Below are positions 12,934 through 62,319 of a stretch of DNA of 63,933 bases, in pieces. Every line of letters starts with the position of its first letter. The first letter of the stretch is position 1. The position numbers and the translations under genes were made by a program. This DNA is from a virus. Taxonomy: Duplodnaviria > Caudoviricetes. The notes beneath the pieces are model-generated. The model saw nothing but the letters and a program-made list of their open reading frames with translations. It was not told the DNA's origin and ran no database searches. The stretch spans positions 1 through 63,933 of the IMG/VR virus record IMGVR_UViG_3300006059_000003; one strand, given 5' to 3'.

Positions 12934-14229
12934 ATGTCAGCAACATGCAAAGTAAAAGTAAAACGAAAAGAAGAATCTACTGTATCTGTAGAAACTGTTC
13001 CCTCTAAGAAAACAGCAGTTAAATCTACATCTATAGGAAATTCTCTTCCAGAGAAATTGGAACCCGTTTCGGAACCGAAACCTAGATTTGTTCATAAGAA
13101 ACCTAATGTAAATTCTCCAGAAATAACCAATCAATTCTTAGTACCTTATGGAACTTCTAAAGGTATTGCTGGACCTATAGCAATATTATCTAAAGAAGTA
13201 AGAATAGGTTCTCAGGGAGGAATTATAGGTAATCCAAAAGCAGGTAAGAGACGCGGCGGAAGAGAAAGAAAACTTCATATCTATGACGAAGAAAGACAGT
13301 TAAGAGATAAAGTTATTGCTCATACTCCTGAAGGTAAGAGAATATTTGCATATAACAATAATGGAGTTCCTATTTGTTTCGCTAAACGTTCTAAAGAAAG
13401 TGAAAATTATCCAGAAGGCCATATAGGTAGAGTTCGTTGTCAGTCACATATTACTATGATGAATGGTAGATGTGCTAGACATGGAGGAAATGCACGTTCT
13501 GGACTAATGCACCCCCATGCTAAACATTTACGAACAGCAGAATCTCTCCCTAGACACCTTCGTGTAGATATGTTAGCCGCAGAAAATGACCCTGATCTTC
13601 TTTCTTTGAGACATGAAATAAAACTAAGTGATGTAAGAATTGCTAGTTTAAAACGTGACTTGGAATTAGGATTAAATTCTACTGCCGCTAGACGTATTGA
13701 TAATCTCCTACAGACTATTAACGAGAAACTAAGTAAAAAGTCTTCTTCACAATCTATTAATGAATTATTGTACGAATTAATAGAAGTTTACCAAAAAGGT
13801 AAATCTGAAAAAGCAGGATGGAAAGAGTTAGAAGAAGCTAAAGAAGCTAGACGTAAGTTATCAGAGTCAGAAGCTAAAAGAGAAACTCAACTCAAACTTA
13901 CTTTAGGTGCTAATCAAGTACTTACTCTAGTTTCTGCTATGGCTACTATTGCTCGTGATCTAATTGCTAAACTTATGAAAGACCTAGAATCTAGGTATAT
14001 TTTTATAGATAAAGCAAATGCACCTTTAGCATTACAGCAAACTCTTAAAGAATTTGTAGATTCTAACCCTACTTCAACTGCTGTAGTGAAACGACTTGAT
14101 CTTTCCTGGCAAACTCTGTTCTTAACTGATATGACTAGGAAATTGGGTAAATTAACTACAGGAACAGTTCGTGAAGAAGAAAAAGACGCTATGTATTCTG
14201 ATAGCGAATCAGATATAATGGACGAATAG
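12934..14229 (+). CDS. terS: Terminase small subunit-like (HGG Zn-finger domain plus coiled coil)
   Basis: C..RC...GRCARHGG motif (HGGxSTG-type), upstream of TerL. Confidence 0.55.
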   Translation: MSATCKVKVKRKEESTVSVETVPSKKTAVKSTSIGNSLPEKLEPVSEPKPRFVHKKPNVNSPEITNQFLVPYGTSKGIAGPIAILSKEVRIGSQGGIIGNPKAGKRRGGRERKLHIYDEERQLRDKVIAHTPEGKRIFAYNNNGVPICFAKRSKESENYPEGHIGRVRCQSHITMMNGRCARHGGNARSGLMHPHAKHLRTAESLPRHLRVDMLAAENDPDLLSLRHEIKLSDVRIASLKRDLELGLNSTAARRIDNLLQTINEKLSKKSSSQSINELLYELIEVYQKGKSEKAGWKELEEAKEARRKLSESEAKRETQLKLTLGANQVLTLVSAMATIARDLIAKLMKDLESRYIFIDKANAPLALQQTLKEFVDSNPTSTAVVKRLDLSWQTLFLTDMTRKLGKLTTGTVREEEKDAMYSDSESDIMDE

Positions 14230-14268
14230 AAAATAAAGATAGAACATAAGGATGGAGACAGTAACTAT

Positions 14269-14988
14269 ATGAGTTTTACAGAAGCAAAAAGCGGTAGTAT
14301 TGAAGAAGTTAAAGATTGGCTCGATAATCTAAAAGATACAGGTATTACCTTCTACGGCGAAGCCCGTGATCTTGACCAACATCGTGCAGAACATGCAGAT
14401 ATTTTCGATTATGCAAAATATGATCTTCTATACTTAATCAAGCGTGAAGAAGAGAAGGAAGACAGTACTGGATTTGTTATAGTAAATTTAGCAGGACATG
14501 GAGGAATTGGACAAGCACAATACTCTATTTCCTGTATTAGGATTCCTAGTCCATCTTCTTCCCAGGAAAATGCAACTCCTTCACAAGGTCAAGGAAATCT
14601 CTCTGCTAATCAAATTCCTACATCATACCCTACTGTTGGGGGGCATGATGAAGTCGGTCCTAATGTAGGTTCTGAACTTCCTCCAAAACAAATCTTTGTA
14701 GACACTGTAAGTTCTAGTAGTCCTATTGCTGAATCTACAGAAGAAGAATCTACAGATAATGAAGAAGATGAAGATAGTAAAGATAACGAAGAAGGCGAAG
14801 TTGATTTAGATGAAAATGAAAATCCAATAACTTCTAACTCTACTCCTACTTCCACTCCTACATCAGAATCTACTCCTGCACCTGTAATTACTACTACAAA
14901 TACATCAACTACATCAGAATCTACTTCTACTACAGAACCTACACCTCCTGTAGAAGATAAGAAAGAAGACAAAAATAATGGCAGTTAG
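14269..14988 (+). CDS. Hypothetical protein with acidic, S/T/P-rich disordered tail
   Basis: 239-aa ORF; N-domain similar to 9032. Confidence 0.7.
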   Translation: MSFTEAKSGSIEEVKDWLDNLKDTGITFYGEARDLDQHRAEHADIFDYAKYDLLYLIKREEEKEDSTGFVIVNLAGHGGIGQAQYSISCIRIPSPSSSQENATPSQGQGNLSANQIPTSYPTVGGHDEVGPNVGSELPPKQIFVDTVSSSSPIAESTEEESTDNEEDEDSKDNEEGEVDLDENENPITSNSTPTSTPTSESTPAPVITTTNTSTTSESTSTTEPTPPVEDKKEDKNNGS

Positions 14989-15346
14989 TGGACAAAAAGT
15001 GGTATCTGCATATAAGGTTATTGCGGCAGGTAGTGTAAATAATACACTAATTGCACCTAACCTTTCCTATCTTCGTGGGTATCAATTAGTAAACAATGCC
15101 GCTTATGTAGTATATCTACATTTGTATGATAAGGCTACTGCTCCTGTTTGTGGTACTGATGTACCAATATTGACTATTGCAATTCCTGCATCTACAACTA
15201 CTCCTATACCATTTCCTCTAACAAGCACACAAGAAGCTGTTATATTCAAGAATGGTCTAGGATTTGCACTATCTAAGGGTTCGGCAGATACAGATGCTAC
15301 AGTAGTAGTTGCAGCAGATATTGTTGGAACTATTTTCTACGTTTAA
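14978..15346 (+). CDS. Putative virion protein
   Basis: YLHLYDKATAP..GTDVP...FKNGLGFA beta-sandwich pattern. Confidence 0.6.
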   Translation: MAVSGQKVVSAYKVIAAGSVNNTLIAPNLSYLRGYQLVNNAAYVVYLHLYDKATAPVCGTDVPILTIAIPASTTTPIPFPLTSTQEAVIFKNGLGFALSKGSADTDATVVVAADIVGTIFYV

Positions 15347-15493
15347 GATAGTATCTACCATTTCTCTTCCAGAGAAGATGTAGAAAAGGGTTCCTTTGGT
15401 TTGTTTCCTTACCTTTTCTACTAAGTGAGGGAGTAGTAATTTCTGTTTTGAGAGGGATAGGGTTCTCTACTCCCTTATCTTAGAGTATAAACT

Positions 15494-17419
15494 ATGTTAG
15501 CAAATGTAGGTCGTAATGGTAAGACAGTAAACGAAACCACTAAGTCAATGTTTGAGTTAGCATTAGAAGAATTAACTGCACAACTAACTCCTGACACTGT
15601 TTTAGAAGATCGAGAATCTGCACCTAAAACTGTAGATGTATTACCTCTTTATGATTTCGTAGAAAAAACATCAAAGTTTATTCTTGAACCGTGGCAAGTA
15701 CATCTATGTAATAGATTAGAACGTTTGACTTATGAGAAGGGACAAAGAATTCTTATACATAAACCTCCTCAACATGGTGGGAGTGTTATTGTATCTCAGA
15801 GACTACCTGCATATCTTATTGGTGATAATCCTATCACAAGGGTAAAACTTGCATGTTATAATATCGAACATGCCACAACTTTTACATCTATTAATAAGCA
15901 GATTATGCAAACTTCTGAATACCAGGAGTTATTCCCTAGTAGAAACTGCAGATTACCTCTTCGTCCTTCTGATAAGAAATTTTCTACAGCAGCTCGTATT
16001 CGTTATCGTGATGGTCAATCCTCTTTAATGGCTTTAGGTTTGCTTACTGGATTTGTTGGACAAGGAGCAGATCACCTTTTAATTGACGACCCATACGCTT
16101 CCCCACAAGAAGCATTATCTCCTGCTGTAAATAAATCAGTACAGATGTTTTGGGAATCAGCGGCCCGTACTCGTATTGATGATAATACTAATGTAATTGT
16201 TATGTTCCATAGATATTGGGAAGATGACATTACTGGATTTCTTATTAAGAATGAAGGACTTCAAGCAGAAGGGGGTAAATGGGAGTTAATTTCCTACAGA
16301 GCAGAATGGGACGGTGATGAATCTATAGAAGTTGGAGGAAAAGACCCTTTAAATCGTAAGATTGGTGTATATCTTTCTCCCAGGAAAGCGGCGCAACCTA
16401 ATTACTACAGAGAACAAAAGAAAAGTGTTGCGATATGGCGTTCACAATTTCAAGGTAAACCTTCATCAGAAGACGGTAACATGTTTAAGACTGATAGGAT
16501 TAAGATAATTCCTACAGTTTTAGTTAAACTTGTCAAATTGACTCGTGCATGGGATACTGCATCTTCTGAGGATGGTGACTATACTGTTGGTGTTCTAATG
16601 GGATTAGGTGAAGATAAGATAATATATATTCTACACGTAGAGAGATTCAAAGCAGAAACTCACGAACGTAATAAGAGAATGAAACGAACTTGTCTTAATG
16701 ATCGTTTACGTTATCGTCGTATTGAGTATGTAGTTTGTGTACCTCAAAATCCTTCTGATGCTGGTAAAGATCAAGCAACTTCTTTTCAAATGTTATTTGC
16801 AGGATTTACAGTTTCTGTCATTCAAGCATTTAATAGAGGAGATAAGACAGTTCGTGCTGACCCGTGGGGTTCCTACTGTAATGCTGGACTTGTTAAAGTA
16901 GTTTTCTCTGGAAATATGTTTGAGAAAAATGAAAAAGGCGACTATATTTCCTGGGTTCCAGAATGGTATGCAGAACATAAGAAATTTCCTAACCAATTAA
17001 TTGACGACCAAGTTGATGCCTCTTCAGACGGATTTTCTGAATTAGTCTTAGATGGAGATATTCCTGCTGGAGAAGATTTTGATACTTTAGGAAGAGGTAA
17101 GGATTCTGACTTACTTGATAATCTACTTCCTACATCAAACATAGTATTTAATGAAGAGAATGATTTTGATACTATGATGAATGAGTATCTTGCTCAACAA
17201 GCAGAAGGAAATACTTATGAAGATTACTATAGTAGTAGAGCAGGTACAACAAATTCAGGTTCTCCTCCTACAATTATTGGAGATATAAATGGCTACGGTA
17301 AAAATAAAATCAGTATCAACCAGATCGTCTCCAACGCGACGGGGAATCCTAGCTTCTACAGGTATGGTAAAGGACTACCAAGAAAAGTCCCTCAAAAAAC
17401 TACGAGAGGGAGTCGCTGA
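15494..17419 (+). CDS. terL: Terminase large subunit
   Basis: PWQ Q-motif, Walker A-like PPQHGGS, Walker B LLIDDP, nuclease RAWDTA...GDYTVG...DDQVDA. Confidence 0.9.
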   Translation: MLANVGRNGKTVNETTKSMFELALEELTAQLTPDTVLEDRESAPKTVDVLPLYDFVEKTSKFILEPWQVHLCNRLERLTYEKGQRILIHKPPQHGGSVIVSQRLPAYLIGDNPITRVKLACYNIEHATTFTSINKQIMQTSEYQELFPSRNCRLPLRPSDKKFSTAARIRYRDGQSSLMALGLLTGFVGQGADHLLIDDPYASPQEALSPAVNKSVQMFWESAARTRIDDNTNVIVMFHRYWEDDITGFLIKNEGLQAEGGKWELISYRAEWDGDESIEVGGKDPLNRKIGVYLSPRKAAQPNYYREQKKSVAIWRSQFQGKPSSEDGNMFKTDRIKIIPTVLVKLVKLTRAWDTASSEDGDYTVGVLMGLGEDKIIYILHVERFKAETHERNKRMKRTCLNDRLRYRRIEYVVCVPQNPSDAGKDQATSFQMLFAGFTVSVIQAFNRGDKTVRADPWGSYCNAGLVKVVFSGNMFEKNEKGDYISWVPEWYAEHKKFPNQLIDDQVDASSDGFSELVLDGDIPAGEDFDTLGRGKDSDLLDNLLPTSNIVFNEENDFDTMMNEYLAQQAEGNTYEDYYSSRAGTTNSGSPPTIIGDINGYGKNKISINQIVSNATGNPSFYRYGKGLPRKVPQKTTRGSR

Positions 17420-21855: not shown

Positions 21856-22218
21856 ATGTCAGAATCAATTCAAAGTACACAAACAAAGTCTAATGCAGAA
21901 CTTCTAGGTAGAGGTAAGAAGGTTAAAGTTTCTACAGCTAATAAGCCAGTAAAACAAGCTATAGTAGTTAGGGATTTATACGACCGGGAAGAGGATTACG
22001 ACGTACCTCATAGCGGTTCTGTAGATGAAGAAACTGGACGACCTTTATATGATGAAGCACCTGTTCCTGGTGGGAGATTTGCAGTAATTCAAAAGCAAGG
22101 TGCAAATATTAAGATTGATCTACTAAACGCAAAAGGCGATGTTATTGATGCAGATGGTAATATCCTAAAAGAAGCACCTAAACTTGATGCAACAAATCTT
22201 CCTCTACTGTTAGTGTAA
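21856..22218 (+). CDS. Hypothetical head-region protein
   Basis: TAAGGA RBS; VPGGRF motif. Confidence 0.65.
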   Translation: MSESIQSTQTKSNAELLGRGKKVKVSTANKPVKQAIVVRDLYDREEDYDVPHSGSVDEETGRPLYDEAPVPGGRFAVIQKQGANIKIDLLNAKGDVIDADGNILKEAPKLDATNLPLLLV

Positions 22219-39582: not shown

Positions 39583-40893
39583 ATGTTAGTCAAAATGTCA
39601 AAGTCTTCTGTAGCTTCTGCAATCAATTCAAGACGATCTAAGAAGGTAACTGTAAAGACTACAGCTACAGTTAAACTAGTAGAAGATACTGTAAAAATTG
39701 TGAAGAATCCTTCGCCACGTAAGCCTGATAGTAGAATCTGCGGATATAACTTTGTAGATAAAGATATTTGCGGATTACCAGAATATCATCATGGTCCTCA
39801 CCAAACTGTAGAAAAATCAGAAGTTCCTATTAAAGTAGTTAGACGTACAGAAACTAACTGCCCTATGGTTGCAAAGTTTGATACTAAGATTGCAGGAAGT
39901 CTTACAGATATTATCTTTGCATGGTGGTTATTAGGAAATCCAGTATCTACTCCATTAGAAATATCTTTAGATATTTACTCTAAAGGATTAAAATTTGAAA
40001 ATGAGATAAACAGTTTTCCTGCTGTACATTCTCTAGTATTTCTAGGGTATATGGAGACTATAGAATGGACTGCCGCTAATCGTATTTCTCGCTGTAATAA
40101 ATACAAATTAACGAAGGAAGGTATAAAAATTGCAGAAACAATCTCGCAAAAAACGGGTACTAATCAAATTGTGGTACAAAACGAAAAAACAAATACAAAA
40201 GAATCCACAGAATCAGATTGCGATTTGTGTGAAGGAACTGGATTTAACGAAGATAATGGAGAATCCTGTAAAAAATGTAAAGGAACAGGAGTGATTAAAA
40301 CGAAGGTTAGTAATTCTCTTCCAGAGAAGGTTCGGCAACCGGAAATTGTAATGAGTACTACAATGGTTGAGTGTATTAATTGCGATGGAACAGGAGTAGC
40401 TGGAGAAACTATTTGTCCTATTTGTAAAGGGACGGGAGAGCGAGAAGGTAAGGTAGAGCCTAAGAAAATACAAGTAAAGGTTAAACCTATACTAGCTACT
40501 CCTATAGTTTATAATAAGCTAATAGATAAGGGTATCCCAAAAGATGTAGTTTATATAGGTCGTCCTTCTAAGTACGGTAATCCTTACAAATTAACTACAA
40601 ATACTTATGCAGAACGACAAACAGTAATTGAAAAGTTTCGGAAGTATGCAGAAAATAGATTACAGAAGGAACCTAATTGGTTAGACGAATTGAAAGGAAA
40701 GAGTGTGGTTTGTTTTTGCGCTCCTAAATTGTGTCATGGTGATGTACTTATAGAACTTGCAAATAAAGAACAGAAGGTAATACAGTTATCTAAAGAACCT
40801 ATAGATTGTAAGTATTGTAAGGGAACTGGAATGTCTACAATAACTACAGATGGAATGTGCCGACGATGTAAAGGAACAGGTGAAAGTAAATGA
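39583..40893 (+). CDS. Multidomain protein: wHTH-like region, DnaJ-type Zn fingers, DUF4326
   Basis: Six CxxCxGxG motifs; VYIGRPSKYGNPY...CFCAPKLCHGDVL (DUF4326); LGY...YKLTKEG wHTH-like. Confidence 0.75.
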   Translation: MLVKMSKSSVASAINSRRSKKVTVKTTATVKLVEDTVKIVKNPSPRKPDSRICGYNFVDKDICGLPEYHHGPHQTVEKSEVPIKVVRRTETNCPMVAKFDTKIAGSLTDIIFAWWLLGNPVSTPLEISLDIYSKGLKFENEINSFPAVHSLVFLGYMETIEWTAANRISRCNKYKLTKEGIKIAETISQKTGTNQIVVQNEKTNTKESTESDCDLCEGTGFNEDNGESCKKCKGTGVIKTKVSNSLPEKVRQPEIVMSTTMVECINCDGTGVAGETICPICKGTGEREGKVEPKKIQVKVKPILATPIVYNKLIDKGIPKDVVYIGRPSKYGNPYKLTTNTYAERQTVIEKFRKYAENRLQKEPNWLDELKGKSVVCFCAPKLCHGDVLIELANKEQKVIQLSKEPIDCKYCKGTGMSTITTDGMCRRCKGTGESK

Positions 40894-41099: not shown

Positions 41100-42564
41100 C
41101 TTGCGTCAAAGAATACAAAATCAGGTTATAATGAAGTTAGTAAAAGTTAAATATAAAAAATACAGAACACTAATGAAACATCAACAAGATTTCATTAGTT
41201 GGGGATTAGAAAAAACCCATGTACCTAATCTAATGGATTTAAGGTTAGGAAAAACATTAAGTACTATTCGATTGATAAAGGAATGGACAGATGCAGAAAC
41301 TAATAATAATCCTGAGAACAGCACTTTTCCTGTACTTATTGTTGCGCCTTCTGCTGTACTAGAGACTTGGGAAAAAGAACTACGGTTAGAGTATGAGCAA
41401 TATGTAATCCTTCAAGGTAAAACATTTGATAGACGATCTACTCTAGCAGTTAAAGAGGGGTTCGGAATCTCTGGAAGAAGATGGATACTGATAAACTACG
41501 AATCACTTTTGTACACTCCCGGTATAGCTTTCCTTCCATGGTTTAGTGTAGTAAGTGATGAAAGCGTAATTATTAAAAATCCTAAATCCAAAATCTCTCA
41601 ACTATTTACTAAAGGATTTCATGAAGTTAAACATAGAGTAATACTTACTGGACTTATATCACCCGAAGGAGAGTTAGATATTTTCCAGCAAATGTATTTT
41701 CTATATAGAGAATTCATGGGTTGCACTAATTACTACGAATACAGAGCAAAATACTTTCGTTTACAATGGGATGGTTGGGCATGTAAACCGTCGGCAAAAC
41801 TACAGATTGAAAATGCCGTCCATGCCACTTCTTTTGCCCTCACACGAACGCAAGCAGGTATAGGCAATAAAAAGGTCCGGCAGGTACGAAAAGTCTCTCT
41901 CACGACCGAACAACAGAAAATCTATGACCGTATAGAAAAGGACTTTGTTTCAGAAGTAAAAGGACTAGAAGTAGAAACTGACCATGCTACTACTAAGTCT
42001 ATATGGTTAGCAAGAATTACAGGAGGTTGTGATACAGAAGGTACTTTCAAATGGAATCCTAAACTACAAGAATTACTGTATCTTCTTAAATACGAACTAA
42101 GTAAAGAACCTGTAGTAGTATGGTGTAGGTTTGATACAGAAATAAAAATGATAGCAGATACTTTACTAAAGAAGAAGATACCCTGCACTACTTTAACAGG
42201 TGAAGATACTAGAGAAACTAAAAAGAAGAAACAGGAATGGTTTAGAACTTGTTCTGTTCCAGGGAGAGTAATTATCTGCCAGGAAATGAAAGTCGCCGAA
42301 TTCGGAGTCAACATGTCTGCATCTTCTACAGCAGTTTACTATTCCTTTGTGTATTCTGGAAATACTATAGCACAAACAGAAGATCGTATAGAAGACCCTA
42401 TGAAGAAACAACCTTTATTATACATCTACCTTGTAGCAGAAGGAACTGTAGATGAAGATGTTGTAGAAACTATACGAGATAAAGTAAGATCGGCGAAACA
42501 GTTTATGGCAGGATTTAATTCAAGATTTAGAAAAAGGATTATGGAAAAATATGCAACAAAATAA
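41086..42564 (+). CDS. SNF2-like SF2 helicase (start probably 41131)
   Basis: HQ...LGKT, DES, LTG, VVWCRF, FGVNMS, QTEDRI motifs. Confidence 0.85.
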   Translation: MSVFFLRQRIQNQVIMKLVKVKYKKYRTLMKHQQDFISWGLEKTHVPNLMDLRLGKTLSTIRLIKEWTDAETNNNPENSTFPVLIVAPSAVLETWEKELRLEYEQYVILQGKTFDRRSTLAVKEGFGISGRRWILINYESLLYTPGIAFLPWFSVVSDESVIIKNPKSKISQLFTKGFHEVKHRVILTGLISPEGELDIFQQMYFLYREFMGCTNYYEYRAKYFRLQWDGWACKPSAKLQIENAVHATSFALTRTQAGIGNKKVRQVRKVSLTTEQQKIYDRIEKDFVSEVKGLEVETDHATTKSIWLARITGGCDTEGTFKWNPKLQELLYLLKYELSKEPVVVWCRFDTEIKMIADTLLKKKIPCTTLTGEDTRETKKKKQEWFRTCSVPGRVIICQEMKVAEFGVNMSASSTAVYYSFVYSGNTIAQTEDRIEDPMKKQPLLYIYLVAEGTVDEDVVETIRDKVRSAKQFMAGFNSRFRKRIMEKYATK

Positions 42565-43207
42565 ACCTAAAATGTTCATCTGTTTAGACCCAGGACTTAG
42601 TAGATTTCCTGGTGGTACTGGTTGGGCATTGTTTAATTCAATTTCTACTCATATAGTTCCAGTAGAAACTGGACTAATAACAACCAGAGTCGTCAAACTT
42701 TCCTGGGAAGAAAGAGTATCAGAGATTTGTAAAAGAGTACACCATGATTTAGTTCCTAAACTAAGATGGTGTGGAGTAGTGCATGGTAAAGTGTATATAG
42801 AACTTCCTACACTATTCCTATCAGCTAAAGGAATGACTTGTGCTTCTGGTAAGAATGGTGGAGATTCTGACCTTGTTAAACTAGCTTTTCTTGTAGGTAG
42901 TTTATCTGAAATATTTAGAGAATTCGATATACCTGTACAACTTATTCGTGTGAACGATTGGAAAGTTCAACTAAATGATAAACAAGTAGAAGATCGTGTA
43001 GAAAATAGATTAGGTGTTCTAAAAGGGCAGTTACCTTATTCTATTCACGAAACTTGTGCAGTTGCTATGGGTCTGTGGGTCAAAGGAAGTTTCAAAGCTA
43101 ATGAAGGAAGAATACAAAATACAGGAACAAGAGCAACCAAAGGTAAAGAAATCACAGAAATCTTCAATACCATTACAAATGTTAGAACTAGAAAAAGAGT
43201 GGAGTAA
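42551..43207 (+). CDS. RuvC-like Holliday junction resolvase
   Basis: ICLDPG...TGWA, VYIELP, DWK motifs. Confidence 0.7.
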   Translation: MQQNKPKMFICLDPGLSRFPGGTGWALFNSISTHIVPVETGLITTRVVKLSWEERVSEICKRVHHDLVPKLRWCGVVHGKVYIELPTLFLSAKGMTCASGKNGGDSDLVKLAFLVGSLSEIFREFDIPVQLIRVNDWKVQLNDKQVEDRVENRLGVLKGQLPYSIHETCAVAMGLWVKGSFKANEGRIQNTGTRATKGKEITEIFNTITNVRTRKRVE

Positions 43208-44172: not shown

Positions 44173-45356
44173 TAATTATGGCAACAGTTAAAGTAAAGAA
44201 AAGAATAATACAGAATATAGTAAATTCTGTTTCAGTTAAGGACAGTATTCCTTCTCTTCCAGAAAGAGTGAAGCGAGTATTGGCGAAACCGCTTCCTGTA
44301 ATTTCTGGAGAAGAATCCTACTATTGGTTGCTTTCCCGCGACGGCATAACGCAAAGTGCAATTTCTGTATATGAAGAATGTCCTAGGAAGTTACAGTATA
44401 AATTACGAGAAGGATTAACTAAAGGAACTTCAGATCACAGTCTTGATTTTGGAAATATGTTCCATCATATTCTGGATAAATGCTACAGTAGTATAAAAAC
44501 TTTTCCAGTAAGAAAAGGTATAAATCCTAAGACAGCATGGACTACTATAATAAATCAAGCATGTAAAGAATACTACTATAAACAATCTAAAGACTTAGAT
44601 GTAAAAGATACTCAAAAATTTGAATTAATGTTCGGAACATGTAAACTGATGTTAGAACATTATTTCGATTGGTGGGGAAAAGAAGATTTAAGTCTAAATT
44701 TTGTAGGAGTAGAACAGCTTTTCGATGTACCCTATACCCTTCGTAATGGGGTAAAAATTAGACTTAGAGGGAAGATAGACGGTATCCTAAAAATAGACGG
44801 AGGATATTGGATTCTTGAAAACAAAACAAAAGGAAGTATAGATGATATAGGTGCATATTCTGTTAATGGAGTAGTAGAGTCTATGGGGTACAATCTACAG
44901 GTTCTTTTCTACTGTCTTGCAATCAAGGGAGTGTATGGAGTATATCCAAAAGGTGTAATCTATAATCTTATTAAAAGACCCGGACAGGAATTTAAAGGTA
45001 CATTCAATAGAAAGCCAGAAACTCTCCCTGAATACTATGAAAGAATTAAGAAAGATATTGCAGAAAAGATAGTAGAAGTAGGAGGAAAGAAATTCAATCC
45101 ATACCTTCTTCGTTATCATGTAAGAATTACAGAAGAAGAGATTCAAACATGGTCATTACAAGATTTTGATTCTGTAATAGAGGAAATATACCAATGGGAT
45201 ATGCAGAATCTCATTTCCAGAAGAGTACAGGCAAGCTGTTTTATGTTTCGGAAACCATGCGAATTCCTAGACATATGTTCCTCTGGAAGTAAAGTCGGAT
45301 ATTCTAAAAGAGAACACGTATTTCCTGAATTAGTTTCTGAGGAGGAAGATGAATAA
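44169..45356 (+). CDS. Cas4-like PD-(D/E)XK exonuclease (start probably 44178)
   Basis: CPRK, FG..FH, E...RGKIDG...ILENKT, Q..FY, C-terminal C...PCEF..IC. Confidence 0.85.
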   Translation: MIIMATVKVKKRIIQNIVNSVSVKDSIPSLPERVKRVLAKPLPVISGEESYYWLLSRDGITQSAISVYEECPRKLQYKLREGLTKGTSDHSLDFGNMFHHILDKCYSSIKTFPVRKGINPKTAWTTIINQACKEYYYKQSKDLDVKDTQKFELMFGTCKLMLEHYFDWWGKEDLSLNFVGVEQLFDVPYTLRNGVKIRLRGKIDGILKIDGGYWILENKTKGSIDDIGAYSVNGVVESMGYNLQVLFYCLAIKGVYGVYPKGVIYNLIKRPGQEFKGTFNRKPETLPEYYERIKKDIAEKIVEVGGKKFNPYLLRYHVRITEEEIQTWSLQDFDSVIEEIYQWDMQNLISRRVQASCFMFRKPCEFLDICSSGSKVGYSKREHVFPELVSEEEDE

Positions 45357-46066: not shown

Positions 46067-46993
46067 ATGGCAACGGTAATAAATCGTTCCGGCGGTAGAG
46101 TATCCACAGTCAATAAACCAAAACCAGTTAGTAGAAAATCTACAAAAACACCAATCCCCACAATAGATACAGATGTTGACTTGACAATACCAGATGAACC
46201 ATGTGAACCGGAATACGACCTAAGTACTTGTACTTTCGTATTACATGGAGAGGAAGGTATAGGAAAAACATCAGTAGCACGTGAATTTCCTTCTCCTCTA
46301 TTTCTTATGTTTGAACCTGGTGGTAAGTTTCTTAGTATGTCCCGTATACCACGCAACGGACAGTTTTCTAAATGGTCGCAATTTGTAAAGGTAATAGACA
46401 ATCTATTAAAGTCTGATACTTATAGGACTGTAGTTATAGATACTGTTGATTTGTGTTATATACTTTGTGAACAGCATATTTGTGAAGAAAATGTAGAACA
46501 ACATATTAATGACGGTTCACTAGGGTTCAATCGTGGAAATGACAAAGCAGAGTTTGAATTCAAGGAACAAATTCTACGCATAACAGGAAGTGGTAGAGGA
46601 GTAATCTTTATATCTCATAGTAAATCTGTAGAATTTGAAAAATCAACAGGTGTAAAACATACAAAAATAATTCCTACTATGAAAGATCGTGTTCGTCGGT
46701 TCCTCAAAGGTTTTGTTGATATGACAATGTATTTTGGTTATTCTGGTAATAAACGAATACTAACTATAGAAGGTTCCGACGATGTTGATGCTAAAAATAG
46801 AATGGGAAGTGCAGGTAGATTCTTCACACCTAAAGGAGAAGCAATTCGTTCTGTAGATATGGGAGATTCTGCACAAGAAGGTTATGATAATTTCTTAAAG
46901 GCTTTCAACAATCAACAAGTTGACCCAGGCGATGATGTAAGAACTGCACGTCTCTCTGAGGTAAAAGCAAAATTTGCAGTTAAAAAGAAATAA
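46067..46993 (+). CDS. Sak4-like AAA_24 ATPase (ssDNA annealing)
   Basis: HGEEGIGKT, TVVIDTV, IFISH, AKNR motifs; next to SSB and Cas4-like genes. Confidence 0.85.
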   Translation: MATVINRSGGRVSTVNKPKPVSRKSTKTPIPTIDTDVDLTIPDEPCEPEYDLSTCTFVLHGEEGIGKTSVAREFPSPLFLMFEPGGKFLSMSRIPRNGQFSKWSQFVKVIDNLLKSDTYRTVVIDTVDLCYILCEQHICEENVEQHINDGSLGFNRGNDKAEFEFKEQILRITGSGRGVIFISHSKSVEFEKSTGVKHTKIIPTMKDRVRRFLKGFVDMTMYFGYSGNKRILTIEGSDDVDAKNRMGSAGRFFTPKGEAIRSVDMGDSAQEGYDNFLKAFNNQQVDPGDDVRTARLSEVKAKFAVKKK

Positions 46994-47388: not shown

Positions 47389-48825
47389 ATGGCAACACAA
47401 TCGTTATCGTCCTTACTTGCTAAGGCAAAGAAGAACTGGTCTGAAACTGTAGAAACTGCGAAGAAGAATAACTCCGTAGTTTTTGATGATGGTTCCTATA
47501 CGGGACAGTTTGTAGCATTCGATATTAAACAGTCGAATCCACAGGAGAAGGGTAAAGTACCTACATGGGGCTGTCTAATTTCTCTTCTTATTCTCGAAGG
47601 AGATAAAGAAGGTAAGACATACTATCAATGGGTTAATCTTTTCGATAAGATTGATGGAGAGGAACAACTCGGTGTAATTTCTCCATACTTTATTCCTTAT
47701 CTGGAAAAGTTTACAAATACTGATGCAGAGGAATTAGATATATCCAAACTGGAAGAAATCCTAAAAGACTGTGTAGACGAAAATCAGGTATGGGATTTTA
47801 CGTTGAAGACAGGTTCGGCAGGGTTCCAGAATCTACGGCTTATTAAGAGAGATGAAAACTATAAGCCAGCTAAGAAGGGTGCAAAATCTACACCTGTTCC
47901 TACTCCACAAGACCACAAGAAACCTACTCCTACTAAAGCAGAAGCCGCAAAATCTACTCCTAAGAAGAAGACAAAGCGAGAATGTCCTTTTGAAGAAGGA
48001 CAGGAGGTTACCTTTACTGATAATGATATAGAGTATACTGGAACTGTTGCAGAAATTGATCTGGATAACGAAACAGTAGACATTTCTTACACCTTTACTA
48101 AGAAGGTAGGAAAGAAGACTGTAGAGGAGGAAGCAGTAGCAACTGTAGGTTATGATAATGTTACTGCTATAGAATCTGACCTTCTTCCTTTTGAAGAAGG
48201 CGACGAAGTTATCTGGATAAAGGTAACGGGTTCTGGTAAGAGGGCAACTACAGAAACTATTGAATGTACTGTTGAATCTGTGGATACTGAGAATGAAACC
48301 TGTAATGTAGTTTTTGGTAAAGGTAAGAACAAAATCGTCGGAGTAGTTAAGTGGGAAGATTTGTCTAAACCTGAATCTGAGGAGGATGAAGAGGAAGACG
48401 AAGAAACTACAGAAGAAGAGGAAGAAGAAACCGAAGCAATCAATCTTGAATTGGAAGAAGGCGACGAAGTTACCTTTACCAATGATGAAGATTTAGAAGT
48501 TACTGGTACTGTAGTTTCTCTTGATGAAGACGAACAAACCTTGGAGGTTAAGATCAAGGTTGGTAAGAAATTCCAGACAGTTACCGTACCTTACTCTTCT
48601 GTAGTTATTCCTGATGCAGAGGAAGAAGACGAAGAAGGGAATGAAGAAGACGAAGAGGAAGTAGTTCCTACAGTTGGAGATGATGTAGAATTCATAGACG
48701 AAAAGACAGGTAAGGAAGTACAGGGTAAGATTGTTAAGCTAGACCCTACAAACTCTATTGCTTCTGTAAAAGTAGGAACAGTAGTAAAGAAACTTTCCTA
48801 CGATGATATTCAAATCTTACGATAG
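47389..48825 (+). CDS. SSB-like protein with four tandem SH3/Tudor-like acidic repeats
   Basis: DUF669-like N-domain (DGSYTG...ILEG..EGK); repeats FEEGQEVTF, FEEGDEVIW, LEEGDEVTF, TVGDDVEF. Confidence 0.65.
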   Translation: MATQSLSSLLAKAKKNWSETVETAKKNNSVVFDDGSYTGQFVAFDIKQSNPQEKGKVPTWGCLISLLILEGDKEGKTYYQWVNLFDKIDGEEQLGVISPYFIPYLEKFTNTDAEELDISKLEEILKDCVDENQVWDFTLKTGSAGFQNLRLIKRDENYKPAKKGAKSTPVPTPQDHKKPTPTKAEAAKSTPKKKTKRECPFEEGQEVTFTDNDIEYTGTVAEIDLDNETVDISYTFTKKVGKKTVEEEAVATVGYDNVTAIESDLLPFEEGDEVIWIKVTGSGKRATTETIECTVESVDTENETCNVVFGKGKNKIVGVVKWEDLSKPESEEDEEEDEETTEEEEEETEAINLELEEGDEVTFTNDEDLEVTGTVVSLDEDEQTLEVKIKVGKKFQTVTVPYSSVVIPDAEEEDEEGNEEDEEEVVPTVGDDVEFIDEKTGKEVQGKIVKLDPTNSIASVKVGTVVKKLSYDDIQILR

Positions 48826-48998: not shown

Positions 48999-49232
48999 AT
49001 GACACCTAAAATAAAAGCAAAAATTAAGGTAAAACCAAAACCAATCGTACTTTCTGGAAGAGAACCTTCTACTGCATATTGTTTAGAAACTAGAGATTTT
49101 AACTTACAAGGCAACGACACAAACATGATCTCTACTTTCTCAACTAAAGAAGAACTTCTAGGTAGGATTGAATCTGAAATTGACGCAGGAAACAAACGAA
49201 TGATAGTTTCTGTAGTTGAAAGGTTGATATGA
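48999..49232 (+). CDS. Hypothetical protein with KIKAKIKVK N-terminus
   Basis: 77-aa ORF coupled to the next gene. Confidence 0.6.
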   Translation: MTPKIKAKIKVKPKPIVLSGREPSTAYCLETRDFNLQGNDTNMISTFSTKEELLGRIESEIDAGNKRMIVSVVERLI

Positions 49233-53954: not shown

Positions 53955-54560
53955 ATGGAAACAAAAATAAAAGTAGTTAATACTGCACAAAGAATACAAC
54001 AACAAATATGTGATGGTAAATGTAGAAAACCACGTATACTTAAACGTGTAATTTCTGGAGGTCAAAGAGGAGTAGATATTGCAGGAGTTAGAGCCGCTAA
54101 ACTTCTAGGTATAAAAACTGGTGGACATATGCCAGAAGGATTTATTACACAAGATGGTCCTAAGATAGGTTACAAGTGGCAGTACGGAATGGTTGATGAT
54201 ACTCCTCCTCTGGAAAAGAATGGAGAATTTAAACCTGACTATAAGACTAGAACCTGGAAGAATGTACAAGAAGCTGATGCAACTATTAGAATTGCAACTG
54301 ACTTTGACAGTTATGGTGAAGTTTGTACACTTAATGCAATACAACACTACCAGAAACTACATCTTGATATATACCTAATACCCTTATGGACTATTGACGG
54401 AGAAACACAGTACCGAATCCCACAAAGAGAACTTGCATACTGGATTGTCTCTCACGGGATTGAGACTCTAAATATTGCAGGTAATAGCTACAACAGTATA
54501 TACGATAAAGCCTATGCGTATATACTAAATACACTTTCTATTGTAGCGTGGGAGTTATGA
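53955..54560 (+). CDS. SLOG-superfamily 'putative molybdenum carrier' protein
   Basis: VISGGQRGVD.AG...GG..P.GF...RT..NV..ADAT...TLNIAGN. Confidence 0.8.
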   Translation: METKIKVVNTAQRIQQQICDGKCRKPRILKRVISGGQRGVDIAGVRAAKLLGIKTGGHMPEGFITQDGPKIGYKWQYGMVDDTPPLEKNGEFKPDYKTRTWKNVQEADATIRIATDFDSYGEVCTLNAIQHYQKLHLDIYLIPLWTIDGETQYRIPQRELAYWIVSHGIETLNIAGNSYNSIYDKAYAYILNTLSIVAWEL

Positions 54561-54561
54561 T

Positions 54562-57500: not shown

Positions 57501-57717
57501 AGTTATCCGTTATGTAGCTGGAGAAACTACAAGTGACTTTCAAGGAAGAGGTAGAAAACCACACACTTACTATGTAACACCTAAGATGGAGAAAATATGG
57601 AAAGACGCTTCTCTGGAAAGAAAAGACGGTGAAGTATATATGAAGTTAAAATCTCTTTTCCAGAGAAATGTAACGCAATCGACGCAATCGCAGAAAGTAA
57701 AGGTAAAGCGAAAATGA
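54562..57717 (+). CDS. Primase-helicase (Zn finger, TOPRIM, AAA+, C-terminal wHTH) containing an intein
   Basis: CIFC..CKSC; CEGEWD and CYD TOPRIM; DVRD; GPPGSGKT; C-terminal HTH. Confidence 0.85.
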   Translation: MVYIKKDNMKVPAVLRPFIRLGFVYDEEKVSGVNVRGDCIFCGKVDKFYIRIEDGIGSDGKEKKAGMWDCKSCQKLGNVYSFMKFWYDFWLEERKNYSKQFIELSLDRGVPAKTLKDAGIVYDNDQFAIPVRNATGTINNFRFYNFFGKIPRGKKKHQLYGMPELDSQLYGMDSLFQGVARGIQKVYICYSADTEILTEEGWIKFPTLKNQKVAQYAENTQNITFVKPLAKQILPYSKKMVNIKGNSCDLLVTPEHRVLIKETDGIRTIRADQVKSGMVLPVSGEYRGKGYSPSNNEVKLLVAYAADGHKERGNRRAWAFKKERKVSRLIEILESLEIPYKFGGLSAKGYTQIVVMAYDAPILDRIMPTKQITSDFIHWSVEARETLINELRFWDGDTVSKYTHRVFSADKVQVDAISSICVTTGYSCNIREDTRKSSINYILNISPRKYRNVTSVTTQRNITNKVYCVTVPTGTVVVRRNGKIVICRNCEGEWDTIALEYLLSKESVEAIVVGTPGANTWKASWNKCFSGKEVTICYDVGSEGEKGTEKVYHNLKDIVSKSSPIKYINWSKKGDLPDGYDVRDHIKQGGTYEQFIQLEEKYTSIPVKEEQKQTEIENTPTLQEVQQSKSLSAKRPTFEKVLKAYRKYLFMDKDMENGLRIMFATCLTVGIKGDPLWVHTIGPPGSGKTALLMSLSKVKIVVSKSSITRNVLVSGMNVHPDPSLIPRLNGKLFVFKDFTELLGMRSDDKEFIFSTLRGVYDGTLEKDHGNGTQRDFKSHFNMLTGVTQKIFTENRSIMGERFLLYHMVKGTDYDSRNPVMAAIDSVGSEVPIHEELVGIAAEYLDVRVSKEDIPVIPQHYKEKIYSLACLTSLLRATVERLSKVDRKLMLRPQQEMPTRIAKQLTKLLMGLSLLNTPIQYTQEDIALVTRVALDSCVAFNLETVSSLIQKPGQTLVDLAIDSNIPHSTLRDHIEDLVELGVIRYVAGETTSDFQGRGRKPHTYYVTPKMEKIWKDASLERKDGEVYMKLKSLFQRNVTQSTQSQKVKVKRK
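55126..56028 (+). mobile_element. Intein with LAGLIDADG homing endonuclease (301 aa)
   Basis: Starts CYSADTEILT; VTPEHR block B; VAYAADG and LRFWDG; ends VYCVTV...ICRN, +1 Cys of CEGEWD. Confidence 0.9.
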
Positions 57718-58324: not shown

Positions 58325-58680
58325 TGGAAATAGAAGAAGTAAAAAGAGAAGAAACCTTTAGTACTGTAAAGAATCATATAGATGATTTCTTAGATAACAT
58401 GCGTTTTGGTAGTTCACAAGCAGAACGATATGCTTATCTATTTCTTACTATAGCTAGATTTCCTGCATGGAAAAAGAATCTATGTGAGGATTTTGTAAGT
58501 CTACCTATACTATGTCATTATAGAAAGAAACAGTATAGACTTACTGGAGCTTCTAGATTAGGTGATGTATGGCTTAGAGAAGATATAACTAGAACTAATG
58601 GTTATGATCTTAGGGTAGATGTTACAGAACTATCTAACTTTACAGTAATGGGTATGCCCTCATGGGGGAACAAAGGATAA
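58324..58680 (+). CDS. Conserved phage hypothetical protein
   Basis: YRLTGASRLGDVWL...GYDLRV motif. Confidence 0.7.
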   Translation: MEIEEVKREETFSTVKNHIDDFLDNMRFGSSQAERYAYLFLTIARFPAWKKNLCEDFVSLPILCHYRKKQYRLTGASRLGDVWLREDITRTNGYDLRVDVTELSNFTVMGMPSWGNKG

Positions 58681-58699
58681 GGATTGAAGAAGTAATAAA

Positions 58700-60511: not shown

Positions 60512-60544
60512 AAAATCTAGGAGATCACACAGAAAGAAAATACA

Positions 60545-60679
60545 ATGGTTACTTATTGGTTTACTGAATATATTAGATTTAATGTACCTTATTTACATGT
60601 TGGGTCTAGGTCACTATTTATGATACGTTTTGGTATAACCATACAGAGTGAGAAATTAGACCTATTAGGAGATAAGTAA
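60545..60679 (+). CDS. Small hypothetical protein (44 aa)
   Basis: TAATG coupling to the next gene. Confidence 0.35.
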   Translation: MVTYWFTEYIRFNVPYLHVGSRSLFMIRFGITIQSEKLDLLGDK

Positions 60680-61110
60680 TGGATTTAAGTAATTTATCTA
60701 GAGAAGAAAGAAATAAGTATTTAGGTCAATGGAAAGACTTACAAGCAGAAAGAGAGCAGTTTAAAAAAGAATACGGAGATAATGAAAAGATAGAACCTTT
60801 CTTTAATTTAGTGTCTAAAATACTAAAAGAATATTCTGATACAGGACAGTTACAAGCTAAAGGACAAGTAATAGTTTGTAACCCTATATGGGGATATACT
60901 GCTAATTGGATAGCTAGACATTTTGGACTTGATTATGAAACTGATGTAGTTTTTAAAGAAAACGAAATAGTAGTATGTGGTAAGGATGATGTAGATAAAG
61001 TTATCGAATCTAGAAAATGGATTAAAAAACAAATAAACGAACCTGTATTACTAAAGAAAGCACAAATAAATCTAGCACCTACAAGAAATATAAGAAAGAG
61101 AATAATATGA
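60679..61110 (+). CDS. Hypothetical protein
   Basis: AGGAG RBS; 143 aa. Confidence 0.7.
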   Translation: MDLSNLSREERNKYLGQWKDLQAEREQFKKEYGDNEKIEPFFNLVSKILKEYSDTGQLQAKGQVIVCNPIWGYTANWIARHFGLDYETDVVFKENEIVVCGKDDVDKVIESRKWIKKQINEPVLLKKAQINLAPTRNIRKRII

Positions 61111-61898
61111 TTGATACTACACTTAGTAAGATGTTCCCACAAGGTTGTCTTCCTGATTGGCTTATAGAAGATTCTGTAAAAGAATGCAAAGACTTCAAAC
61201 GTCGAGAAGAACTAGGCAAAACAGTTTCTACAGACTACTATCTTAATATAGGTCTGATAGATATAGAACCTTTTAACAAAGATCAAGTCCAACCAGCTTC
61301 TTATGATGTTAGGTTAGGAAATTCTTTTAAGATTCTCGATAAGAATAGAGGAATGACTATAGACCCTATAAAATGGGCAGACCCTTTAGGTAGACCTACA
61401 GTAGTTTATAGAGATATAGGAGTTAGTGAGTCCGGCATTTTAATTCTTCATCCAGGGGATTTACTACTAGCAACTACAGAAGAAGTTATTTCTCTTCCCA
61501 GGAATATACAAGGTTCTGTAGAAGGTAAATCTTCTCTTGCTAGATTAGGATTATCTGTACATTCTACTGGAAGATTTATAGACCCTGGATTTTCAGGACA
61601 GATAACCTTAGAGATTTCTACAATTTCTAATCCTATAATCCTCCGTCCTGGTATGTTTATTGCTCAGATAAACTTCCTACACTTAACTGCTCCCTGTCAT
61701 AGACCTTATGGTGATAAGAGTAGAGATAGTAAGTATCAAAATCAGCAAGGGGCTACAGAATCTAAATACTATGAAAACAAAAGTAAAGGTGAAGAAGAAA
61801 GTACAGGAGACTTTAGAGAAACAATTAAGAACCCAAGAGAATATACCAGAAAATACGAGCAAAGATACGGAGGTAGAGCAGAAACAGACGGAGGATAG
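61107..61898 (+). CDS. dcd: dCTP deaminase
   Basis: QPASYDVRLG, EGKSSLARLGL.VH, IDPGFSGQITLE, KYQNQ. Confidence 0.92.
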   Translation: MIDTTLSKMFPQGCLPDWLIEDSVKECKDFKRREELGKTVSTDYYLNIGLIDIEPFNKDQVQPASYDVRLGNSFKILDKNRGMTIDPIKWADPLGRPTVVYRDIGVSESGILILHPGDLLLATTEEVISLPRNIQGSVEGKSSLARLGLSVHSTGRFIDPGFSGQITLEISTISNPIILRPGMFIAQINFLHLTAPCHRPYGDKSRDSKYQNQQGATESKYYENKSKGEEESTGDFRETIKNPREYTRKYEQRYGGRAETDGG

Positions 61899-62319
61899 TT
61901 TAATTCCTACAGAAGTTTCATGTGATAGATTTACTCTCCATCCTGCTAAGAATTCAATGGGTGTAAGACCTAAACCTCTTATGTATATTGATTTTCAAAT
62001 AGTAAGACCCGGAATGTCCGGGTCTGAATTTCCTGGAGGAAAATTAATAATAACATATAGGGATGATGAAGAGATAAAATCTAGGGTTGTTACCTTCGTT
62101 GGTTTCTTAGAGTGTATTAAACATTTCTTAAATATACAGTTAGGTAATATATCTGTAGAATTTATAGATAAACAAGATTCTAATGAGGGAAAAACTGCCG
62201 CGCAAATAATGCAGGATAGGATGGAAAAAATACAGTATACAGAAGAAAATGAGATTGTACGAAATAAGAGTATAACTCCTATGTTTACTCCAAAAACTAC
62301 AGGATATAGGAAGAAATAG
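61771..62319 (+). CDS. Hypothetical protein (MKTKVKVKKK start; track start 61708)
   Basis: ATG at 61771; overlaps the dcd 3' end. Confidence 0.6.
   Translation: MKTKVKVKKKVQETLEKQLRTQENIPENTSKDTEVEQKQTEDSLIPTEVSCDRFTLHPAKNSMGVRPKPLMYIDFQIVRPGMSGSEFPGGKLIITYRDDEEIKSRVVTFVGFLECIKHFLNIQLGNISVEFIDKQDSNEGKTAAQIMQDRMEKIQYTEENEIVRNKSITPMFTPKTTGYRKK

Follow-up and report, generated by a model that had tools for sequence, protein, structure and literature searches.

Alternating lysine/valine tags at the termini of DNA-handling proteins in a Caudoviricetes virus: a peptide-level feature with a possible tethering role

Unrelated replication proteins may share a short motif by which they bind a common hub, as is the case for the PIP box and the beta-clamp-binding motif, and client proteins gather in a similar manner on the bacterial single-stranded DNA-binding protein (SSB) and on T4 gp32 and T7 gp2.5. 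The clients of the Escherichia coli SSB interactome (helicase, nuclease, annealase, primase, polymerase and uracil-DNA glycosylase, UDG) resemble the set of proteins described here. Disordered basic tails are a further known feature of nucleic-acid-binding proteins, such as the extensions of ribosomal proteins and, in the phi29 connector, the basic N-terminus that binds pRNA. The stretch of DNA analyzed in this study, called the window below, is the entire virus record IMGVR_UViG_3300006059_000003 of IMG/VR (63,933 bases, GC content 34-39%), in which all genes from about 12.9 kb onward are located on the + strand. A sequence-only reading of the window had listed twelve peptides of the type K-[VI]-K-[VI]-K at the termini of otherwise unrelated proteins and had interpreted them as a beta-strand tag that docks replication and packaging proteins at a common hub or viral factory. 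We found that these tags are enriched at protein termini, that they are kept as peptide and not as DNA, and that they are confined to one functional class. The analysis supports the view that unrelated proteins have in common a tag that is real and under selection at the protein level.

Re-translation of the coordinates recovered all twelve quoted peptides at their respective genes. Counts were made on a hand-curated set of 50 + strand open reading frames (ORFs; 12934-63345, 15,824 amino acids in total), named here by their first base, with gene starts assigned by hand from Shine-Dalgarno-like sequences and gene packing. The strict pattern K[VI]K[VI]K occurred four times in the six-frame translation, three times in frame +0, once in frame +2 and never in the other four frames. 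All four matches were located inside ORFs and at most 15 residues from a protein end, these end zones comprising 9.5% of the residues. With the looser pattern K[VI]K[VI] or [VI]K[VI]K, 17 overlapping matches were obtained, 12 of which were terminal; the terminal matches fell in eight of the 50 proteins (seven N-terminal, one C-terminal) and the internal ones in four proteins. Shuffling of whole proteins, within termini and by columns gave on average 0.13, 0.70 and 0.50 proteins with the loose pattern within residues 2-16, and the observed number of 7/50 was reached in none of 1000, 5000 and 5000 shuffles, respectively. The N-terminal enrichment (7/50 versus 0.1-0.7 expected) thus withstood the composition-matched comparison that the sequence-only reading had proposed. 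At the C-termini, the excess of the loose pattern was not significant (1/50 observed versus 0.12-0.19 expected, p 0.11-0.17) and that of the strict pattern was nominal (p 0.004-0.013). The motif definition was post hoc, having been chosen after the data were seen.

To allow for ordinary beta-strand habits and lysine-rich gene starts, we compared the window with 80 random IMG/VR loci (1.02 Mb, 1332 genes), which were drawn with an arbitrary 14-mer. A single crude automatic gene caller was run alike on this background, on the window and on a related record, G001, and the pattern [KR][VIL][KR][VIL] or its reverse was scored within residues 2-16. It was present in 12/1332 background genes (0.9%), in 6/68 genes of the window (Fisher p=1.2e-4) and in 4/77 genes of G001 (Fisher p=9e-3), corresponding to rates 6- to 10-fold above background. 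Since the automatic caller missed the tags of ORFs 48999 and 61771, the figure for the window is conservative. Elsewhere in the background proteins, the last 15 residues gave 12 matches and two internal windows 15 and 3. There is thus no general N-terminal effect, and a general property of gene starts was rejected for lack of an N-terminal excess in the 1332 genes.

The bias of the tag towards replication and packaging proteins, likewise part of the sequence-only reading, was confirmed: the tag was found on 8/31 such proteins and on 0/19 proteins of the virion (capsid-to-tail) block (p=0.015). A net charge of at least +4 at an end showed the same distribution (11/31 packaging or replication proteins and 1/19 proteins of the virion block, p=0.014).

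G001, an IMG/VR record of 61,718 bases, was detected when the Cas4-like protein served as the query of an alignment scan. The two records are syntenic, with matches in G001 at 28-56% identity for 33 window proteins out of 50, and the GC content of G001 is 54% compared to 34-39% in the window. The helicase of G001 starts with MKIKLRAVHRHY, read as MKIKLRA, and the Cas4-like protein with MKIRVRAG. The zinc-finger protein orthologous to that of ORF 39583 has the possible start MKIRVKT, the UDG has the possible start MIPIRIKR, and PolA carries a 55-residue extension beginning with MKIKTRVRR, which is not present in PolA of the window. At the C-termini, Sak4 ends with EVKAKFTVKGRR and the primase-helicase with LKVRMVRRMRR. 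Starts of the form MKI[KR] occurred in 4/77 proteins of G001, 0/68 of the window and 0/1332 of the background. The codons of the G001 tags are GC-rich, e.g., AAG ATC CGG GTC AAG. As K and R and also V, I and L were exchanged while the underlying DNA differs, the tag is conserved as a peptide.

Conservation was only partial, however. Four replication proteins of G001 have MKI[KR]x[KR] starts, but the TerS-like, 48999 and 61771 tags have no counterpart there. In the TerS-like protein, the tag forms the tip of an extension of about 117 N-terminal residues that is missing from the G001 orthologue, a tagless protein whose start corresponds to about residue 118 of the window protein. For ORFs 48999 and 61771 no orthologue was found in G001, so that a comparison of their tags is impossible. 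The N-terminus of the G001 portal is Arg-rich and non-alternating. PolA and UDG are tagged in G001 only and the TerS-like protein in the window only; tags thus appear to have been gained and lost between orthologues, as is typical of short linear motifs.

The sequence-only reading had named AT-rich codon bias as an explanation that would undo the tag. AAA supplies 66% of the Lys codons and GTA 59% of the Val codons of the window, and the tags use both. Furthermore, the tags of the TerS-like protein (AAAGTAAAAGTAAAA) and of the primase-helicase (GTAAAGGTAAAG) are perfect hexamer repeats. Together with the post-hoc choice of the motif and with the SLOG peptide, which aligns with a hydrophobic start in G001, these features are what speaks for the tags being nothing special, i.e., a product of composition, hexamer slippage at the ends, post-hoc chance or ordinary first strands. 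We regard this as very improbable, since shuffles that keep the composition never reached the observed count, the background rate was 0.9%, the tags were retained with other codons at 54% GC, surviving K-to-R and V-to-I/L exchange, and in the helicase the tag does not form a strand of the fold (see below). Composition, slippage and chance are already largely refuted, and AT-rich codon bias in particular was rejected by the shuffles and by the 54%-GC relative. The DNA word AAAGTAAA was present six times on the + strand, five times in frame, and three times on the - strand. As it is mostly in frame, a frame-independent DNA motif was rejected as well.

The designation as a beta-strand was not upheld in the one tag that was modelled. 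An AlphaFold2 model of the helicase, based on a 28-sequence alignment, had a mean predicted local distance difference test (pLDDT) score of 88.8. In this model residues 1-15 are coil, with pLDDT below 50 for residues 1-5 and a mean of 58 for residues 1-10, and the fold starts with a helix at residue 16. The model thus places the helicase tag outside the fold, and a first strand of the protein's own fold was ruled out for this case. In the Cas4-like family, the conserved core begins at DGITQS and is preceded by an unalignable part of 0 to about 90 residues; in the window this variable extension comprises about 55 residues with the tag at its tip. The longer extensions are mostly basic-tipped (MKIKKKPVQ, MRIQPQQ, MKTRKRS, MAFKLKAKPTKP). 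Similarly, many relatives of the helicase (35-57% identity) have basic/hydrophobic starts in front of an L-x-HQ motif (MRVSIKP, MRIRCKIRKFR, MRVRNIKYR, MKIKEIELR, MVLRLKRRR, MIKKKFRLKPKK), and others begin at the L-x-HQ motif itself. Short linear or recruitment motifs are typically built in this manner, with the motif at the tip of a tether of variable length. Sec or Tat signal peptides were rejected, as the tags are followed by polar low-complexity sequence and not by a hydrophobic core (h-region) of at least 10 residues.

Basic ends are widespread in these families. Sak4 was compared with 1.84 billion representative proteins, of which the 149 best-scoring ones other than the query (P0066-P0214) were taken. 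Among these, a net charge of at least +3 was found for the first 15 residues in 88/149 and for the last 15 residues in 123/149 proteins; the corresponding values were 17/41 and 20/41 for helicase homologues and 157/1332 and 219/1332 for background genes. The N-terminal consensus of the 149 Sak4 representatives is M-A-V-V-K-K-K (A2 in 47, V3 in 30, V4 in 36, K/R5 in 72, K/R6 in 79 and K7 in 43 proteins), a start of the type represented in the window by MATVKVKK and MATVKIKS. At the C-terminus, a motif LS[ED]..AK..KK[KR] recurs in the family. The C-terminal peptide quoted for Sak4 of the window is present but looks like this old family motif rather than a copy of the tag. Passages retrieved by term searching from one Sak4 paper, PMC5928155, mention neither M-A-V-V-K-K-K nor a basic C-terminal motif. 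More distant loci with a Cas4-Sak4-PolA module have generic basic ends, e.g., MPIRRKQRKQ, or PRRIRRQKV at the C-terminus of the primase-helicase of locus L003.

The explanation that we consider likeliest, with confidence just short of even, is that the K-[VI]-K-[VI]-K stretches are polyanion-binding tails which tether enzymes to DNA. The tags are best described as flexible, cationic, amphipathic short linear motifs, selected at the protein level, at the extreme N- or C-terminus of DNA-handling proteins, carried here by the helicase, the Cas4-like nuclease, the primase-helicase, the Sak4 annealase, the portal and the TerS-like protein, and in G001 also by PolA and UDG. Their lysines would contact the phosphate backbone non-specifically, and by the same chemistry the tags may also contact the acidic tail of a DNA-coating protein. 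In this way, the local concentration of the enzymes on replicating and packaging DNA would be raised. We infer binding of the tag to DNA or some other polyanion, and we take the K/V alternation to reflect an extended shape of the bound tag. DNA binding is rated first because it covers the functional class, the conservation of charge and the family-wide basic ends and needs no unproven partner; the postulated hub may simply be DNA. The idea of docking or localization in the sequence-only reading is thus supported in part: the tags are real, class-restricted, peptide-level features on floppy or variable tethers, as such a role would have it, but two of the twelve listed items, those of Sak4 and SLOG, look otherwise.

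Several points weigh against tethering to DNA. Strict alternation, near-identical tags and placement directly after Met1 are all dispensable for a plain DNA-binding tail, and yet the tags are near-identical within each genome, with four MKI[KR] starts in G001 and the form [T]x(0-1)K[VI]K[VI]K in the window. Alternation, sameness and end placement better fit a specific receptor, a terminus-reading machine or an effect on translation. In the window, tagged gene starts were A-richer (A-content 0.57 versus 0.42) and less folded (-2.1 versus -5.6 kcal/mol, p=0.005) than the others. The codons of the primase-helicase tag overlap with the start of gene 57714, whose ATG and ribosome-binding region they include; such an overlap is found in G001 as well, and the basic character of this C-terminus may partly result from it. 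Strict alternation is rare in the families (Cas4-like 1/16, helicase 5/41, Sak4 3/149 at the N-terminus and 9/149 at the C-terminus). Set against the family charge counts, this indicates that basic ends are old and common, and that the neat K/V alternation, near-identical across the proteins of one genome, is a speciality of this lineage. Moreover, G001 was the only syntenic relative found in the collections searched, several tags depend on hand-chosen start codons, and in the database, the gene model for the Cas4-like protein of G001 (P0004) has its start 40 codons downstream and is tagless.

If a specific receptor is assumed, a candidate is the acidic protein of 478 residues whose gene, ORF 47389, adjoins that of Sak4. 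Its folded N-domain of about 155 residues is followed by a Lys-rich linker and by four small barrels, all of beta structure, with poly-Asp/Glu linkers between them; the poly-acidic stretches reach net charges of -10 and -12 per 20 residues. AlphaFold2 placed the barrels at about 200-260, 270-322, 358-402 and 430-472 and disordered linkers at 161-196, 330-352 and 408-424. The best Foldseek matches were tandem Agenet, Spt5 KOW, tandem Tudor and MBT repeats (E 2.6e-7 to 1e-3, TM-score 0.09-0.20), and a relative, P0062, matched the C-terminal SH3 domain of RimP (E=1.5e-6). A search of 5.8 billion proteins yielded no more than four homologues; G001, where five barrels are present, and P0061-P0063 share the architecture.

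The N-domain of this protein possibly is an SSB, an assignment derived from its position and from a match in the Atlas, where residues 14-157 were likened to DUF669 clusters (feature score 0.90, TM-score 0.67 normalized by target). In locus L010, a true DUF669 protein (E 4.9e-11) occupies the same position after Sak4. No match to the N-domain was obtained in Pfam or PHROGs, hhalign against a true DUF669 gave a probability of 3.6%, no PDB sequence matched the protein, and Foldseek against viral models returned repeat-barrel matches only. Passages of PMC13687109 and PMC4889955 describe DUF669 as an OB-fold SSB that has an acidic flexible C-terminal region and works with an AAA (Sak4-like) recombinase. 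According to passages of PMC5928155, HK620 Sak4 requires the acidic tail of the neighbouring SSB, and PMC12339929 reports that the T7 polymerase (gp5) has a basic patch to which gp2.5 binds with its acidic tail. Across loci, a strongly acidic gene after Sak4 (net charge -15 in L003 and -34 in L007; also in G001 and the window) goes along with strongly basic enzyme ends, and in L008-L010 the post-Sak4 gene has a net charge of +1 to -3 and the enzyme ends are less basic, a rough trend that comprises seven non-independent loci.

These properties suggest that the tags could be docking motifs proper, which bind the acidic protein and gather clients on one SSB-like hub, whose barrels and poly-Asp/Glu linkers would offer several docking sites for nuclease, helicases, annealase, polymerase and glycosylase. 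The repeated SH3/Tudor/KOW-like barrels with their poly-acidic stretches, the retention of this architecture in relatives, the DUF669 at the same position in L010, the likeness to DUF669 in the Atlas and the known partnership of acidic-tailed SSBs with Sak4 (PMC5928155), an AAA recombinase (PMC13687109, PMC4889955) and polymerase (PMC12339929) argue for it, as do the near-identical tags inside a genome and the parallel between acidity and basic ends. On the other hand, SH3-like barrels are very common and the TM-scores were low, Pfam, PHROGs and hhalign lent no support to an SSB identity, any polycation is drawn to poly-Glu so that no specificity is implied, and the portal and the TerS-like protein are not obvious SSB clients. 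We therefore consider specific docking unlikely. A multivalent scaffold-and-client system, in which the barrels and poly-acidic linkers of a hub on single-stranded DNA would read the tag (K-V-K-V-K here, M-K-I-R-V-R in G001) and thereby form what amounts to a minimal viral factory, appears a shade more doubtful still. If true, eight or more tagged replication, recombination and packaging proteins would assemble on one single-stranded DNA hub, an analogue in a bacterial virus of the readers of histone tails, with the charge polarity reversed relative to the classical SSB interactome, and M-A-V-V-K-K-K in many metagenome Sak4 proteins would mark a much wider use of the system. Interest would be high if the tandem-barrel acidic protein proved to be the reader of the tags.

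A terminus-reading machine could be a ClpX-type AAA+ unfoldase or protease of the host, which would recognize the tags for timed turnover or for remodelling of replication and packaging complexes. Such a machine requires an extreme terminus at either end, and all strict matches lie at most 15 residues from one. Table 1 of PMC8138137 lists among the ClpX degrons the N-termini of lambda O (TNTAKILNFGR) and Dps (STAKLVKSKAT) and the C-terminus of MuA (RRKKAI), two of these examples being phage replication or transposition proteins. By eye, several tags of the window resemble them (compare the N-termini SATCKVKVKRK, ATVKVKKRI and ATVKIKS and the C-termini KVKVKRK and FAVKKK), and G001 has the C-termini VRRMRR and TVKGRR. 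Differences in the tag between genomes, combined with its uniformity inside each of them, could reflect different hosts. This is a resemblance only, however: the MKI[KR]x[KR] starts of G001 are unlike the listed N-terminal degrons, PHROGs and Pfam revealed no protease or adaptor gene in the phage, and there is no evident reason to destabilize about eight proteins including the portal. A role as ClpX-type signals is therefore quite improbable in our opinion.

The A-rich, weakly folded gene starts of the window point to yet another possibility, an early-translation enhancer in which Lys/Ile-rich first codons would boost the yield via an unstructured start or via the nascent peptide. A passage of PMC6920384 reports that K or N followed by Y or I at codons 3-5 raises the yield in E. 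coli largely independently of the synonymous codon. The starts METKIK and MTPKIK of the window have K-I at codons 4-5, and the G001 tags have it at codons 2-3; an effect of this type would also account for the strict placement after Met. Only two of the seven N-terminal tags of the window show this arrangement, however, most tags being K-V, and the published motif contains neither Val nor Arg. Tagged starts of G001 were not less folded (-11.2 versus -10.5 kcal/mol, p=0.78), and a role in mRNA unfolding was rejected because the effect was seen in the window but not in G001. Furthermore, there was no N-terminal excess among the background genes, none of the 19 capsid and tail genes, presumed to be the most highly expressed, was tagged, C-terminal tags are also conserved (Sak4, primase-helicase), and tag-bearing extensions of 45-117 residues are superfluous for translation. 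For these reasons we give an enhancer of early translation little chance of being the explanation.

The positions of the tags and of the genes recognized with PHROGs and Pfam are given in Table 1. No clamp gene was recognized among the window proteins with these collections.

Table 1. Tag peptides, recognized genes and the candidate hub in the window. Single numbers are gene starts.
Feature	Position	Strand	Remarks
KVKVKRK	12949..12969	+	residues 6-12 of 431-aa 'TerS-like' protein upstream of TerL
TerL	15494	+	PHROGs/Pfam; virion/packaging
Portal	17289	+	PHROGs/Pfam
VKIK	17298..17309	+	residues 4-7 of portal (MATVKIKS)
Major head protein	20601	+	PHROGs/Pfam
GKKVKVS	21913..21933	+	residues 20-26 of 120-aa protein
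Tape measure	28477	+	PHROGs/Pfam; tail proteins likewise recognized
KKIQVKVKP	40462..40488	+	residues 294-302 of 436-aa protein 39583-40893
SNF2-type helicase	41131	+	PHROGs/Pfam
KLVKVKYKK	41134..41160	+	residues 2-10 of SNF2-type helicase
UDG	43179	+	PHROGs/Pfam
Cas4-like PD-(D/E)XK exonuclease	44178	+	PHROGs/Pfam
VKVKKRI	44187..44207	+	residues 4-10 of Cas4-like (PD-(D/E)XK) exonuclease
Sak4/AAA_24	46067	+	PHROGs/Pfam
VKAKFAVKKK	46961..46990	+	last 10 residues of Sak4 (AAA_24, 46067-46993)
Candidate hub, 478-aa acidic protein adjoining Sak4	47389..48825	+	not a tag carrier
KIKAKIKVKPKP	49008..49043	+	residues 4-15 of 77-aa putative ORF 48999
PolA	51218	+	PHROGs/Pfam
cpYpsA/SLOG protein	53955	+	PHROGs/Pfam
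KIKVV	53964..53978	+	residues 4-8 of cpYpsA/SLOG protein
Primase-helicase, 1051 aa	54562	+	PHROGs/Pfam
KVKVKRK	57694..57714	+	last 7 residues of 1051-aa primase-helicase
ThyX with HNH insert	58700	+	PHROGs/Pfam; nucleotide metabolism
dCTP deaminase	61107	+	PHROGs/Pfam; nucleotide metabolism
KTKVKVKKKV	61774..61803	+	residues 2-11 of 182-aa ORF

Not every listed peptide is a terminal tag in the narrow sense. The peptide of ORF 21856 is near the terminus but not at the end. KKIQVKVKP of ORF 39583 is internal, between a DnaJ-type zinc-finger region (CXXCXGXG, residues 213-285) and DUF4326 (residues 318-391). The G001 orthologue is shorter, stopping after the zinc-finger part with the sequence VKARIKLRPGAR; since it terminates near this point, KKIQVKVKP probably is a former C-terminal tag. 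PKVKK of UDG is near-terminal only if an upstream start at 43101 is used. KIKVV of the SLOG protein is present, but in G001 it aligns with the hydrophobic, non-basic start MGVIVKG and may thus be no more than the usual first strand of this fold. The label 'TerS' for the protein of ORF 12934 had no support from PHROGs or Pfam, and no homologue was found for the 77-residue product of ORF 48999. Two tagged genes start inside the preceding ORF, that of the portal 131 nucleotides within the 3' end of the TerL ORF (17289-17419), an arrangement also present in G001 with an overlap of 185 nucleotides, and ORF 61771 128 nucleotides within the dCTP deaminase ORF.

Further observations concern the tagged proteins and their neighbours. 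The C-termini of the TerS-like (12934-14229) and Cas4-like (44178-45356) proteins are strongly acidic, with net charges of -5 and -6 over the last 15 residues, and acidic residues after an FPEL motif recur in most Cas4-like homologues; head-to-tail charge pairing inside oligomers is conceivable for tagged proteins of this kind. The primase-helicase (54562-57717) has 1051 residues compared to 705 in G001, and only residues 491-1025 align. Its residues from about 184 to 490 have PHROG matches named PhoH-like, ribonucleotide reductase and thymidylate synthase, and this mixed set suggests that the region may be an inserted element such as an intein. The thymidylate synthase (58700-60511) contains a ThyX-type PHROG match at residues 388-531 and an HNH endonuclease region at residues 155-350, which resembles a homing endonuclease that was fused to the synthase or inserted into it. 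As a feature distinct from the K/V tag, protein starts with M-A-T were found in 8/68 automatically called genes of the window (e.g., 2296, 9632, 11919, 17289, 35230, 44178, 46067 and 47389) and in 5/77 of G001, compared to 13/1332 in the random viral loci.

A megablast search with positions 39000-63900 of the window against cultured phages gave no matches, and tblastn with PolA gave a best identity of about 23%; according to these searches, the virus has no close cultured relative. Single-protein scans of IMG/VR with TerL and with the Cas4-like protein yielded nothing, and alignment scans with the helicase in IMG/VR and JGI metagenomes led to G001, an apparent partial copy of it and locus L137 at 22% identity. 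Closer relatives (P0002, P0003, P0019-P0024 and P0061-P0063) are known as proteins only, from Logan/ENA contigs. The left 12.9 kb of the window have a lower coding density, notably at about 6.6-8.2 kb, and few recognizable genes; in the 603-residue protein 10097-11908, the C-terminal end has a GDSL-lipase-like match that is weak and below the cutoff. A search for tRNA genes in the window detected none. G001 has a tRNA-like sequence, judged by eye, just upstream of its TerS-like gene, and about 170 bases are repeated at both ends of the record, an indication that the genome is terminally redundant or circular.

Should the tags tether enzymes to DNA or to an SSB-like hub, they would provide a simple and portable handle on how a small phage organizes replication, recombination and packaging without a clamp or recognizable organizer. 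They are also of use for annotation: the shared tag marks ORFs 48999 and 61771 as probable DNA-transaction proteins, and the choice of start codons is aided, as illustrated by the four MKI[KR] starts of G001, one of which was missed by the database gene model. M-A-V-V-K-K-K and the basic C-terminal motif of Sak4 could be sites of contact of this recombinase family with SSB or DNA.

In comparison with known systems, the acid/base pairs of phage replisomes (T7 gp2.5-gp5, HK620 SSB-Sak4 and DUF669-AAA recombinase) would share with the present case the electrostatic holding of several DNA enzymes by flexible terminal segments, and here, too, the gene of an acidic, possibly SSB-like protein adjoins Sak4. 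In contrast to these pairs, however, the flexible peptide is basic and located on the clients and not on the SSB, and the candidate hub differs from acidic-tail SSBs in having four to five SH3/Tudor-like barrels with poly-acidic linkers instead of a short acidic tip. The PIP box and clamp-binding motifs are alike in that one short motif occurs at the termini of unrelated replication and repair proteins, often on flexible linkers, but the tag lacks the Q-x-x-L/F core and the phage lacks a recognized clamp gene. The ClpX signals of lambda O, Dps and MuA are likewise basic/hydrophobic and found at either terminus, several tags looking similar to them by eye, whereas the tag form of G001 differs from them. 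The K|N-Y|I translational ramp, as described in PMC6920384, also involves Lys-Ile in the first codons and acts at the amino-acid level; the tags are longer, include Val and Arg, occur at C-termini too and are not found on virion genes. Disordered basic tails are similar in being short, Lys/Arg-rich, unstructured ends of DNA proteins in which charge is conserved over sequence, and differ in that the tags described here alternate strictly between K and hydrophobic residues, are near-identical across unrelated proteins and occupy the last few residues. In summary, basic terminal tails on DNA enzymes are already known in kind, and the tag of this virus is a variation on them.

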